From the NCBI GenBank assembly GCA_934101645.1, contig CAKORX010000003.1, positions 69,179 to 133,178 on the forward strand: DNA of 64,000 nt. Reading direction: 5' to 3'. The notes under the pieces are model-generated. The model was not told where the DNA came from, made no database searches, and saw nothing but the letters and a program-made list of their open reading frames with translations. The first letter of the stretch is position 1. Every line of letters begins with the position of its first letter. Below, one piece after another: positions 38 to 4,983 of this stretch. Both the position numbers and the translations under genes were made by a program. Source of the DNA: an uncultured Bacilli bacterium (GTDB lineage Bacteria > Bacillota_I > Bacilli_A > RF39 > UBA660).

Positions 38-104
38 CCCCCTGAAGAGAGCATTTAACCGTGCTCTCATTTTTTGTGCCCATTTTATAGGGGTTTGCGG
101 GCAT
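38..104. repeat. Left copy of a ~65-bp direct repeat (CTGAAGAGAGCATTTAACCGTGCTCTCATTTTTT-G/A-TGCCCATTTTATA-G/A-GGGTTTGCG..GGCAT). It contains a terminator-like hairpin (GAGAGCA / TGCTCTC stem at 47-68 followed by a T-run). Candidate attL or repeat-element boundary of the island.
   Basis: Near-identical copy at 4916-4983 (34 identical bases in a row, then 2 substitutions and 1 indel). The internal inverted repeat is followed by ATTTTTT. The two copies flank an integrase-remnant-containing block. Confidence 0.7.
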
Positions 105-282
105 ATGTAAAATTGATAACAATTCTTGGGAACAACTCGGGAACAAGTTTTGTTAAATAATAAAAAATATTTTAATAAAAAGTGATGTAAAAACAGAAGA
201 CATTTAGCGGAAAATGTAGTATAATGTAATCATAGAAATTCTATATAATTATAGAATTTTTTTCTTTTATAAGGAGGGTATA

Positions 283-909
283 ATGGATAGTGAATTACAA
301 TTATTAGAAAAAGATATAAAAAAATCTTTAAAAGAACAGCATCCAGAATTAGTTTTAGATAGACTGCATACATTAAGCGTTAAAATAATAAGAAGATTTT
401 GTGAAGAAAATAATATAGCTGTTTTTAATGAAAAAAATGAGTTGTATCCATTGCATAGTTTGGTTGGAATGCTTGTAAAAAAGTATAATCAAAGAGGAAT
501 TCTTAATAACTTTAGTGAAACAGCATTAAAACAGTCAATTTCAATATTTGAAAAATTTAATGATATAAGAAATAATAGTAGTTTTGCACACGATAATGAA
601 ATTTTAACGAAAGAAGATGCTATATATGTTATAAATACTATTGTTAATTTGTTAAATTATATTGTTTATATTGAAACTGGAAAATCACAATATGTAAATA
701 TTAATGTTGCAGATGCCAATGATATTTATAAATATATATGTATTAATGACATTGTTACTACGAGAGAAATATCAGAAAATTTTAATATTTCAATAGATGA
801 AGCAAAGGAAATTTTAATTGAACTTTTTAAAGTAAATAGAGCAATAAGACCTGCTCATTTAGCATGTAATCCCGAAGATGAAAATTGTCAGTGGTCGAAG
901 TATTATTAA
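283..909 (+). CDS. HEPN-domain protein, Abi_C/AbiJ-C-like (Rx6H motif IRNNSSFAH), with a C-terminal winged-helix-like segment. Candidate abortive-infection/toxin RNase.
   Basis: A 208-aa ORF with a good RBS (AAGGAGGG, 8 nt upstream of the ATG). The motif R-N-N-S-S-F-A-H fits the HEPN Rx4-6H signature, followed by a helical region. The C-terminus (DIVTTREISENFNISIDEAKEILIELFK) looks like an HTH/wHTH. Family assignment is by motif only. Confidence 0.5.
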   Translation: MDSELQLLEKDIKKSLKEQHPELVLDRLHTLSVKIIRRFCEENNIAVFNEKNELYPLHSLVGMLVKKYNQRGILNNFSETALKQSISIFEKFNDIRNNSSFAHDNEILTKEDAIYVINTIVNLLNYIVYIETGKSQYVNINVADANDIYKYICINDIVTTREISENFNISIDEAKEILIELFKVNRAIRPAHLACNPEDENCQWSKYY

Positions 910-918
910 GGAGGGCAT

Positions 919-2169
919 ATGGTAGAAGATATTGTAAGTGTTGAAGAAGAATTATATAGTATTTGTGAAGAAATGGAAAAACTATATAAAACTAACGTGG
1001 AAAGCAAAGTAGATGATGTTGATGATGAAAAGGTTACATACATAGGTAGAAGAATTAATAAAATAAAGAAGATTATTAATAATTGTGAATTATCGTTCGA
1101 ATTATCCAGTGACAAAGAAAAAATTAAAAATAATATTAATGCAATTATAAATGCAGAAACTACCATCGGGCAGGTTGTTATTGATGATCCAAACAATACC
1201 CAAGAAATTAGGAATCGTCTTGACTCAATAATCGGTAGTATAAAAGAAGTTGAAATTATTCTTAATTCTTTTATTGATATATCCACTTATTTAAGTCGAG
1301 ATGGTATAAAGAATGGTGTTCAGTCTTATAAAAGAGGCTTAAGCAGAGTTAATTCATCTATTGCTGAATTAGAACAAAAAACAGTAGCTAATTTTCAAAC
1401 ATTACAAGAAGAAGAAAAAAATAAAATTCAACAACTTGGAGATAAACAAGAAGAATTTAAAACTGATATTGATAATCAATTAAATGATTTTACAGAAAAA
1501 ATAAATGAATTAGAAAAAACAATTGAAGATAAAAATGCTGAAATAGAAAATACGAAGGAAAATTATAATAAAATAATTAATGAACTACAAGAATCATATT
1601 CAAATAAGATATCAGAGTTTGAAAACAGCGCTAAACAAGATTTTGATAATATTAAAGTTGAAATTGAAAAGAAAGATGAAAAAATATCTGAGTTAATAGG
1701 ATTAATAGGAAATAAAGCAAATATAGGCGAGTACAAGTCTAATGCTGACAAAGCACACTTTGAAAGAATTAAATGGCAAATAGCTACAGTGATTATTTTT
1801 ATTGTAGCCTTTGCATTAATGGGATTAATCACTCTTTTTACAAAAGATTATAACATTGCAACATTAGCTAGATATATAGTAAGTGTTATATTGTTAGGTA
1901 TGTCTGGTTATACAGGAAAACAAGCAAGTAATTTAAGAAAAGACGAAGTATACTATAGAAAACAACAACTTGAATTATCTTCTATAGATGTTTATTTAGA
2001 TGATATTCCACAAGAAACAAAAATTTTGATAAAGAAAGAATTATCAAATAAAATTTTTGGCCAAGCGGGAGAAACATACAAGAGTAAGTACGATGACAAT
2101 ACAAATGAAACCTTAGATAAAGTTGTTAAATTAGTAGAAAATTTATCCCACACAATCACTAAAAAATAA
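919..2169 (+). CDS. Coiled-coil protein with a C-proximal two-TM hairpin (SLATT-like topology) and a ~100-aa cytoplasmic tail. Predicted partner/effector of the upstream HEPN protein.
   Basis: A 416-aa ORF. Its RBS AGGAGGG overlaps the stop codon of the upstream gene, indicating translational coupling. There is a long heptad-like K/E-rich region. Two hydrophobic helices (WQIATVIIFIVAFALMGLITLF and IVSVILLGMSGYTG) are separated by a short loop. Confidence 0.55.
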   Translation: MVEDIVSVEEELYSICEEMEKLYKTNVESKVDDVDDEKVTYIGRRINKIKKIINNCELSFELSSDKEKIKNNINAIINAETTIGQVVIDDPNNTQEIRNRLDSIIGSIKEVEIILNSFIDISTYLSRDGIKNGVQSYKRGLSRVNSSIAELEQKTVANFQTLQEEEKNKIQQLGDKQEEFKTDIDNQLNDFTEKINELEKTIEDKNAEIENTKENYNKIINELQESYSNKISEFENSAKQDFDNIKVEIEKKDEKISELIGLIGNKANIGEYKSNADKAHFERIKWQIATVIIFIVAFALMGLITLFTKDYNIATLARYIVSVILLGMSGYTGKQASNLRKDEVYYRKQQLELSSIDVYLDDIPQETKILIKKELSNKIFGQAGETYKSKYDDNTNETLDKVVKLVENLSHTITKK

Positions 2170-2178
2170 CCGAGAAAA

Positions 2179-3853: not shown

Positions 3854-3925
3854 ATCTTAATAATTAGAAGTCTGGTAAAACCCAGGCTTTTTAGTGTATA
3901 ATAGATACATAAAAGAGGTGAAATT

Positions 3926-4342
3926 ATGGCTAATACAAGTTTGTTTATTAAGAAGATGAATGATTACAAGAAATGTATGAAATTATTAAATTGTGCTAAC
4001 TATGTTTTTATTGACGAAATTGATTGTTTTGAATTTAAAAAGATAAGTAAATATACAAAGTCAAAACCAACATATGAAAAGGTGAAAGCAGATTTTAAAT
4101 TGATAAATGAATTAATTAATAGACAAGATTTATTAAATGCTGCTACAGTGTTAAGAACATTGTATGAAAATATTATTTATATAATTGCAACTTCATATGA
4201 CAAGAAAATCAAAATTACTTTAGATACATCACCAGAAGAATTGCGCAAAGTATTAGTAGAAAATTGCAGTTCAATATTTACAGATTATTTTGAACCAGAA
4301 GATATAAATACCTTTGTAAAATTATTCATCCTTGTAGTTTAA
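3926..4342 (+). CDS. Hypothetical protein (138 aa) in the island. It may be the 5' half of a frameshifted gene together with 4360-4770.
   Basis: The ORF has RBS AAGAGGTGA and an upstream extended -10 (TGTATAAT). No family recognised. Confidence 0.4.
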   Translation: MANTSLFIKKMNDYKKCMKLLNCANYVFIDEIDCFEFKKISKYTKSKPTYEKVKADFKLINELINRQDLLNAATVLRTLYENIIYIIATSYDKKIKITLDTSPEELRKVLVENCSSIFTDYFEPEDINTFVKLFILVV

Positions 4343-4359
4343 AAGAACTTGTATCATAC

Positions 4360-4770
4360 ATGAATAAAACAATTAAGTATAAAAACTATTTGTTAGGAAA
4401 TCTAAAATATATGATGTTGGTAATAGAATATATGTATTTGAACTTTCTAAATAAAAAAATAAGTAATGAAGAAAGCAAATTTGATCTGAATTTTATAGAT
4501 TTATGTACATATGTAAATTTGATGAATGTTGCTTACTATATTAATGATGTAAAAGATAGTAAGAGTTTTATTAAAAGGTATTTCTATTACGATACGAATA
4601 ATAAGTACATAATCGAAAATCAAGAAAAGATAAAAGTAGTATATGAAACCTTAATAGATAAAAAAGACTTAGTTGAAGAAGATATAAAAGAATTAACTAA
4701 AGCATTAGATTGTCAAATAAACGAAAGTAAATATAAGGTGATAATAGCAGATATATTAGGTAGTAAATAA
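4360..4770 (+). CDS. Hypothetical protein (136 aa) in the island. It may be the 3' half of a frameshifted gene.
   Basis: It lies 18 nt downstream of the previous ORF in a different frame. No family recognised. Confidence 0.4.
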   Translation: MNKTIKYKNYLLGNLKYMMLVIEYMYLNFLNKKISNEESKFDLNFIDLCTYVNLMNVAYYINDVKDSKSFIKRYFYYDTNNKYIIENQEKIKVVYETLIDKKDLVEEDIKELTKALDCQINESKYKVIIADILGSK

Positions 4771-4915
4771 CTAATATGTAATGGCTGTTTTCGGGAACAA
4801 ATGGGGAACAACTACATAGAGCAAGATAGGTAAAATGGGGCTATTTACGAGAAATATAGCAAGTGATAAATCAATAATAATGAAAAATATGACAAAAAAT
4901 CAGGGTATAATTTTT

Positions 4916-4983
4916 CCCACTGAAGAGAGCATTTAACCGTGCTCTCATTTTTTATGCCCATTTTATAAGGGTTTGCGAGGCAT
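4916..4983. repeat. Right copy of the ~65-bp direct repeat (candidate attR / island boundary). Hairpin GAGAGCA/TGCTCTC followed by a T-run at about 4925-4953.
   Basis: Aligned by eye with 38-104. The flanking sequence diverges on both sides. Confidence 0.7.

Follow-up and report, generated by a model that had tools for sequence, protein, structure and literature searches.

Probable traces of two decayed, tandemly integrated defence islands between trpS and metK in an uncultured gut Bacilli bacterium

Islands and prophages enter the 3′ ends of transfer RNA (tRNA) or transfer-messenger RNA (tmRNA) genes by means of lambda-type tyrosine integrases with arm-binding domains (PF14657 together with PF00589). 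In the tycheposons of Prochlorococcus, successive integrations at an attachment (att) site build islands in which newcomers push older elements inward (bioRxiv 10.1101/2020.12.28.424599), and defence hotspots have been described in P4-like satellites and P2-like phages (PMC9122126), alongside satellites of the phage-inducible chromosomal island (PICI) type (PMC10085698). Here, we analyze a 64,000-nucleotide stretch from an uncultured Bacilli bacterium of the RF39 lineage (assembly GCA_934101645.1, contig CAKORX010000003.1; hereafter the window), near the start of which two copies of a terminator-bearing repeat, the module, lie in an accessory block between trpS and metK. We find it probable that these copies belong, as att-proximal modules, to two decayed islands of one tyrosine-integrase family, integrated in tandem: a type B element at 38-4915 and a type A element from 4916 to about 7227.

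Like the islands that target tRNA and tmRNA genes, members of this family have an integrase with an N-terminal arm-binding domain and a core flanked on both sides by arm repeats; they appear to enter at the 3′ end of a structured RNA gene, supply a replacement 3′ end and finish in short terminal direct repeats. They differ in that the target is a two-hairpin RNA of about 100 nt without an Rfam match, in that its terminator is replaced, and in that the site in the window is non-canonical. With tycheposons they share stacking, fragmented integrases, extra partial att copies as remnants and adaptive, variable cargo, but host phylum, integrase lineage and target (tRNA or tmRNA in tycheposons) all differ, and the cargo here is mostly anti-phage. 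The kind of element, an arm-binding tyrosine-integrase island that enters small RNA gene 3′ ends, is already known; the unannotated RNA as landing site is among the new details.

The repeat, its family and the junction at copy 2

A first-pass annotation of this DNA had described a 65-bp direct repeat with a terminator-like hairpin and a 34-nt perfect core. This holds: a repeat search of the window returned a gapless 68-nt repeat of 93% identity (32-99 and 4910-4977), in which the 34-mer CTGAAGAGAGCATTTAACCGTGCTCTCATTTTTT occurs exactly at 42-75 and 4920-4953. Elsewhere in the 64 kb the 34-mer has no match at up to three mismatches, with 0 expected in shuffles. Terminator prediction calls the hairpin GAGAGCA-TTTAACC-GTGCTCTC, followed by a T run, in both copies (47-68 and 4925-4946). 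Copy 1 is made up of CCCCC together with the crossover region (CTGAAGAGA), the hairpin and T run, and a further, weak hairpin (TGCCC...GGGCA). The core, at 38-52 and 4916-4930, lies inside the longer repeat and forms a direct repeat at both ends of the type B element. The motif GGGAACAA occurs four times in the window, all at the type B element ends. As it is confined to one pair inside each end of the first block, we read these repeats as candidate arm-type sites for the integrase, one pair on the P side of the core and one on the P′ side.

38..104, + strand: module copy 1, read as the left att site of the type B element (repeat and terminator searches, family stacking)
128..146, + strand: left GGGAACAA direct-repeat pair, period 11, candidate P′-side arm-type sites of the integrase (motif search)
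4793..4811, + strand: right GGGAACAA direct-repeat pair, candidate P-side arm-type sites, separated from the core by about 105 nt (motif search; equidistant homologous pair in related loci L213 and L214)
4916..4983, + strand: module copy 2, hairpin at 4925-4946, read as the junction between the type B right end and the type A left end (repeat search, terminator call, homology to type A loci)

An exact search with the 22-nt hairpin, using one genome per species, gave 71 stretches, 69 of them in gut Bacilli-type bins ('Tenericutes/Bacilli/Mycoplasma sp. CAG'), with about 67 bins and nearly always one match per bin; the hosts are labelled Tenericutes, Mycoplasma sp. CAG, Bacilli and Ca. Pelethosoma (low-GC gut Bacilli). 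The other two matches, in Dehalococcoidales, have only the hairpin in common. When the 69 loci were oriented and stacked, conservation in every one of them started sharply at CCCCC, spanned about 65 nt and then passed mainly into one of two arms. The type A arm (...AATAATTTTAGGTACAATTTAGGTACAAAAA..., 45 loci) is the sequence after window copy 2, the type B arm (...AATAATTCTTGGGAACAACTCGGGAACAAG..., 16 loci) is the sequence after copy 1, and a few loci have other arms. Both contain a direct repeat in two copies spaced by 11 nt, GGGAACAA in type B, where the pair stands at a constant offset of +81/+92 in all 16 loci, and AGGTACAA in type A. The long 65-nt identity within the window is explained by what the two types have in common, namely the core, the terminator and the 30 nt of left arm that come after it.

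The first-pass annotation had offered, as an alternative, a family of dispersed repeats that contain a terminator. Such a family would be REP-like (repetitive extragenic palindromic) or MITE-like (miniature inverted-repeat transposable element) and without any tie to mobile elements. The core is indeed a good intrinsic terminator, and copy 1 serves as the terminator of trpS in the window. However, the species-representative genomes hold one match, or at most two, per bin, in a fixed context, with arm repeats and an integrase-bearing element downstream wherever there is enough flanking sequence, and the hairpin 22-mer had 0 matches in 2.9 million viral contigs. We take this alternative to be refuted, and give it almost no weight.

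Clustering of open reading frames (ORFs) revealed a constant layout behind the module: arm repeats, a promoter, one to four variable plus-strand genes and, at +2 to +5 kb, an integrase gene that runs the other way. The variable genes encode Fic, AbiEi/AbiEii, AAA_21 with RloB, KAP NTPase and Abi_C proteins, as well as proteins without a family match. Beyond the integrase come a helix-turn-helix (HTH) and peptidase S24 repressor (cI-like), a cro-like HTH regulator and a DnaD-like initiator (phrog_8489, 3.7e-46). The integrase family carries the arm-binding domain PF14657 (Arm-DNA-bind_4), and many of its members are fragmented. Integrases behind type A arms are at least 80% identical to one another (mostly >90%) and those behind type B arms at least 92%, with about 50% between the groups; repeat type matches integrase clade in 13 of 14 loci. 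An integron cassette array was ruled out as an account of this layout: there is one module per element, with no second copy within 8 kb elsewhere, and the cargo has its own promoters and the integrase is of phage type.

Because no second hairpin copy lies within the 8-kb loci, the right ends of intact type B elements were reached via a DUF5677-like protein, the gene for which stands last before the right end in the window and beside the right junction in L213-L218 as well. In L213 and L214 this gene is followed by a GGGAACAA/GAGAACAA pair, then by a stretch of about 105 nt with homology to window 4812-4915 and by ...ATAATTTTCCCACCTGAAGAGA, past which there are unrelated DNA and chromosomal genes. 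In L079, a type B right end is joined to a module and a type B left end, that is, a tandem junction. Copy 2 in the window would be a junction of the same sort, composed of a type B right arm, the core and a type A left arm, and either order of arrival would give it.

One might instead suppose that the 65-mer and the leader behind it mark a boundary for cargo swapping by homologous recombination, and that the two copies arose by leader recombination or duplication rather than by integrase stacking. Cargo does change directly behind a conserved leader (about 200 nt) and ahead of the conserved integrase, as in the P2/P4 hotspots (PMC9122126). Swapping leaves unaccounted for, however, the type B right end with its GGGAACAA pair that precedes copy 2, which is also found in L079, L213 and L214, and the head-to-tail arrangement of a type A and a type B leader. 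As the sole origin of the two copies it seems improbable; as an additional process it is compatible with tandem integration.

The viral contigs were also scanned with other motifs. A scan with GGGAACAANNNGGGAACAA gave at least 120 chance-level matches, was too unspecific and was discarded. The type A repeat pair found similar tandem motifs in two phage contigs of higher GC content: L205 has one pair TTAGGTACAATTTAGGTACAAGAAT (588-608, − strand), and L206 has a TTAGGTACAATTTAGGTACAAGAAT pair as well as the variant GTAGGTACATTTTAGGTACAAGAAT (10810-10830 and ~11040-11060, − strand). These are only suggestive of an arm motif shared with phage integrases outside this lineage.

A proposed small RNA gene as the usual target

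In at least 34 loci, a conserved non-protein unit lies immediately to the left of CCCCC, and the module replaces its terminator. Its promoter, recognizable in 33 of the 34, comprises a TTGACA-like and a TAnnnT hexamer with 17 nt between them (18 in one locus) and lies 73-94 nt upstream of the 22-mer. Although the sequences differ between species, all 31 distinct versions fold into two hairpins, and in a rough alignment the second hairpin has compensatory changes in five of its six pairs. A single-stranded C-rich tail, CAACCAAAACCCCC, follows the hairpins and leads into the terminator. In most cases the unit follows recG, either directly or at a distance of one gene; in two it follows murD (examples of the unit are L023 ~2540-2700, − strand; L209 13230-13350, − strand; and L013, L027, L034, L053 and others).

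Rfam scans of window 1-9000 at a permissive E-value, of 18 loci at gathering thresholds and of the L023 region gave no match at the repeat or the RNA unit and returned only the S-adenosylmethionine (SAM) riboswitch and tRNAs. As a scan of 47 loci found no tRNA or tmRNA beside the module, the target is not one of these genes. The second RNA hairpin was considered as an antiterminator partner of the terminator and ruled out, its sequence being variable and the terminator constant. We interpret the unit as a small RNA gene, about 100 nt long and so far unannotated, presumably expressed from its own promoter, the 3′ end of which would be the attachment site. An overlap of the repeat with the 3′ end of a conserved gene, which the first-pass annotation had raised, would hold at the canonical site, the 34 other loci where the module abuts the RNA unit, but not at the window site.

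The position of the crossover can be narrowed by comparing junctions. The right junction of the intact relative shares just ...CCCACCTGAAGAGA with the module, which puts the true common core at about 13 nt. In the sister lineage L209, whose integrase is 72% identical, recG, the promoter and the RNA are followed by CCCCCTGAAGAGAG, a different hairpin (ATATGAAAATATCTCTC) and GGGAACAA twice. Together with the L213 and L214 junctions, this variant indicates a common core of about CCCCCTGAAGAGA, within which the crossover would lie. The loop TTTAACC was rejected as the crossover overlap: identity at the L213 right junction stops inside the 5′ stem, and the sister lineage has a different hairpin after the shared GAAGAGAG. 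The hairpin beyond the core thus appears to be element-borne and kept as a structure, which fits a replacement terminator that insulates the cargo from read-through.

Two further loci depart from the usual form. In the type B locus L207 (14040-14170, − strand), CCCCCTG leads not into the terminator hairpin but into 38 nt of unrelated filler, after which come TTTATAAGGGG and the GGGAACAA pair. In L060 (6077-6132), the hairpin is followed by GTGTGCCAGGCATGGCATATAACTAGGTGGTGAAAGTCCAC, which may resemble the 5′ end of a group II intron.

The neighbourhood of the att site is itself strain-variable. In L214, a type II-A CRISPR-Cas system (Cas9, Cas1, Cas2, Csn2; 14311-20215) stands about 3 kb past the right att site and is absent in L213 and L215.

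The trpS-metK site and its empty allele

Contigs with an identical MetK fall into two classes, 11 with the block and 12 empty. In the empty allele (L081, L083, L084), the trpS stop codon is directly before the metK promoter and SAM riboswitch (CTTAACTAAAACAAAGTGTTATAAT), with no repeat copy, no core, no Fic gene and no 230-aa gene. As both the repeat and the Fic gene are missing, the strain-variable unit is window ~25-7227 (about 7.2 kb) and not 4.9 kb. An empty site in conspecific strains had been expected on the first reading, and one exists; it does not retain a single repeat copy, and the unit it lacks is larger than the block then proposed. We also observed that trpS in the empty alleles has no terminator of its own ahead of the metK leader.

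1..24, + strand: trpS 3′ end and stop codon (tryptophanyl-tRNA synthetase, class Ib), left flank (L001 8758-9744)
25..37: AAAAGATTGTA, spacer that separates the module from the trpS stop (window 1-60 compared with L081 9780-9810 and L083 1340-1370)
5005..5023, + strand: AGGTAYAA direct-repeat pair, period 11, equivalent in type A to the GGGAACAA pair (offset +80/+91, 45 type A loci)
5048..5088, + strand: conserved hairpin CATTGAGAAAAAGTGCCGAAAGTGGCAAAAATTCTCAATG with a GAAA loop, part of the type A leader (conservation across type A loci)
5175-5203, + strand: consensus promoter, TTGACA, 17 nt, TATAAT (scored 12 of 12)
5225-6139, + strand: Fic-domain cargo gene (PF02661, 1.5e-22; SoFic and PDC-S04 models match)
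6194-6886, + strand: gene for a 230-aa membrane protein (ORF in the remainder of the inserted block)
6868-6897: terminator (terminator prediction)
6913-6920: GGGTACAA motif (motif search)
~6997-7141: possible degenerate third copy of the module and type A repeats (weak local alignment)
7227/7228: right junction, ...CTTTCTTTAA followed by ACAAAGTG (comparison with L081 and L083)
7248-7331, + strand: SAM riboswitch, right flank (RF00162, 66 bits)
7429-8451, + strand: metK, short, 340 aa, right flank (Pfam S-AdoMet synthetase domains)

The full trpS was read on contigs with the same island; in L001, a 328-aa PF00579 gene at 8758-9744 has an end that corresponds to window 24. The DNA to the right of the type B element is homologous to type A elements in other genomes from about 4916 in most loci (range 4906-4920) to 6133, a stretch that takes in module, arms, leader and Fic. 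Over the 248-nt leader (4978-5225) identity to these elements reaches 97%, and window 4916-6132 is 95% identical to L061. The type A element in the window is without an integrase; it keeps the leader, the Fic gene and a unique 1.1-kb tail. The alignment in that tail at 6997-7141 scored 63 against 41.6 +/- 5.8 for shuffles (maximum 61), only marginally above them, and possibly points to an older third element. The CATTGAGAAAAAGTGCCGAAAGTGGCAAAAATTCTCAATG hairpin was noted in L020, L025, L031, L050 and L059 as well; some type A loci have two or three copies, and the L009 assembly breaks inside it.

These observations bear on a simpler alternative, in which a single 4.9-kb element sits at a chromosomal 65-nt terminator site, the copies are the duplicated target and the DNA right of 4983 is chromosome. 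Much of the anatomy would suit it: the block is flanked by repeats, with an integrase remnant within and arm-like repeats inside both ends, and empty alleles are present in the population. Those same alleles contradict it, lacking the repeat together with the Fic and 230-aa genes. In addition, 4916-6133 is a conserved type A left end, copy 2 preceding the same arm as in 45 other loci, and the right junction of intact relatives has only its ~13 nt in common with the module. We consider a single element improbable and return to tandem integration. The first-pass proposal of attL and attR of an integrated element with a decayed integrase therefore survives in part: there is an integrase-bearing element with its recombination site inside the repeat, while the 65 nt are not the duplicated target. 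Similarly, the two outer flanks are dissimilar to each other, as it had stated, but the right one is the left end of a second element and not chromosome.

Several points weigh against two islands stacked by their integrases. The block does not stand at the RNA gene: a search of the window found neither recG nor the RNA tail motif, and the empty trpS-metK junction has no core-like sequence. AAAAGATTGTA on the left, 11 bases before CCCCC that are missing from the empty allele and present only in same-strain contigs, and the core-less right junction at 7227 do not fit canonical core exchange; the outer junctions of the 7.2-kb block share only TAAA-like microhomology. With junctions of this kind, the first entry of the array into trpS-metK would have been non-canonical, or later deletions would have removed its traces. 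None of the 23 contigs has just one of the two elements at this site. Within the family, no other locus has a second hairpin copy (up to five mismatches) within 8 kb, only two bins have two matches, and a full hairpin at both ends of a solitary element is never seen. L043 is the sole mismatch of repeat type and integrase clade, with type B repeats (+82/+93) and a type A-like integrase fragment (+2093..2749); it may be a hybrid or what is left of a tandem. A whole intact element lies in none of the loci, the 16-17 kb layout being a composite of left parts from L053, L054 and L207 and a right part from L213. Finally, neither a circular form nor an excision product nor a transcript was observed, and in assemblies the P-core-P′ junction of window copy 2 and L079 looks the same for a circular form as for a tandem array.

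The intact element, its decay and its relatives

From the composite, an intact member would read, left to right, core, terminator hairpin, two arm repeats, promoter, variable anti-phage cargo and an opposite-strand integrase; then the cI-like repressor, the cro-like regulator, the DnaD-like initiator, a small conserved gene and further cargo (restriction-modification); and at the right end a SNF2 helicase, the DUF5677-like gene, two arm repeats and the core. Its usual target would be the 3′ end of the small RNA gene, mostly downstream of recG, with recombination within CCCCCTGAAGAGA, that is, within the RNA tail and the 5′ side of the terminator stem. The terminator supplied by the element would keep the RNA gene terminated and block host read-through into the cargo. 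Searching the window with the intact proteins (tblastn), together with domain, promoter and terminator searches, gave the following map of what the type B element retains.

197-225: promoter-like site (promoter search)
283-909, + strand: Abi_C/HEPN-type protein, cargo (PF14355, 4.4e-08)
919-2169, + strand: 416-aa coiled-coil protein with C-terminal membrane helices, cargo (weak SLATT/LeoBC/ZorA-like matches only)
2168-2191: bidirectional terminator (terminator prediction)
2182..3181, − strand: pseudogene of the type B tyrosine integrase, spread over three frames and interrupted by stops (PF00589, and tblastn with the intact L054 integrase)
3178..3420, − strand: pseudogene from cluster c6, a small conserved protein of the element, residues 1-81 of 109 (tblastn)
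3449-3560, + strand: scraps of a 412-aa gene (tblastn with L213 proteins)
3554-3850, + strand: last 99 residues of an 864-aa SNF2 helicase (tblastn with L213 proteins, 93% identity, residues 766-864)
3926..4767, + strand: frameshifted DUF5677-like gene (285 aa when intact), last before the right end (intact homologues up to 97% identity)

The integrase remnant corresponds to residues 40-373 of the 373-aa intact form and matches the L054 integrase in three pieces at 92%, 80% and 64% identity, the first figure applying to residues 216-373. Residues 1-39, on the arm-binding side, are deleted and the remainder is frameshifted; PF14657 is annotated on many close homologues. An alternative genetic code (TGA as Trp) was ruled out as the reason for the broken frame, as the stops include TAA and TAG and there are frameshifts besides. 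At about 3178, the truncated integrase is joined by deletion to the c6 pseudogene, the intact form of which lies beyond the repressor, cro and replication genes. Relative to the composite, deletions would have cost the type B element integrase codons 1-39 along with its regulatory and replication genes, most of the cargo on the right, and the reading frames of the integrase and the DUF5677-like gene. Domain search and tblastn thus bear out the HEPN module, integrase remnant and helicase remnant of the first-pass annotation. Its two unknown ORFs are the halves of the one frameshifted DUF5677-like gene.

With the P4/P2 hotspots and PICI elements, the family has in common a small integrase element with repressor, cro-like and replication genes, a fixed slot for interchangeable, unrelated defence systems, and a lack of virion genes in the parts covered. 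In this family, unlike in P4/P2, the slot is bounded by the left att site on one side and by the 3′ end of the integrase gene on the other. The repressor, the cro-like regulator and the initiator are present in intact relatives only, all three having been deleted in the window. Unlike in P4 and PICI satellites, no capsid-redirecting, small-terminase or other helper-exploiting genes were recognized, no helper is known, and several proteins are without a family match. No packaging-hijack genes are annotated in L207, L209 or L213, each of which covers part of the element, and there are no virion or lysis genes in the composite from left to right att site (L054 and L207 on the left, L213 on the right). 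Membership among prophages or satellites is not supported by the recognized genes.

Collectively, our data explain a strain-variable 7.2-kb block of an uncultured gut bacterium, with its Abi_C module and Fic gene, as the probable wreck of two mobile defence islands. They also provide a search signature, CCCCCTGAAGAGA followed by the hairpin and a GGGAACAA or AGGTACAA pair, for such islands in RF39-like genomes, in which mobile elements are poorly annotated. We lean, with some reserve, towards a broader view in which the ~100-nt RNA downstream of recG, conserved across RF39-like gut Bacilli, is the dedicated landing site of non-viral defence islands of about 16 kb that stack in tandem and overwrite its terminator, and in which it is the main defence-island seed of the lineage. 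With its terminator exchanged for that of the incoming element, the RNA gene offers a testable case of integration into an RNA gene other than a tRNA gene.

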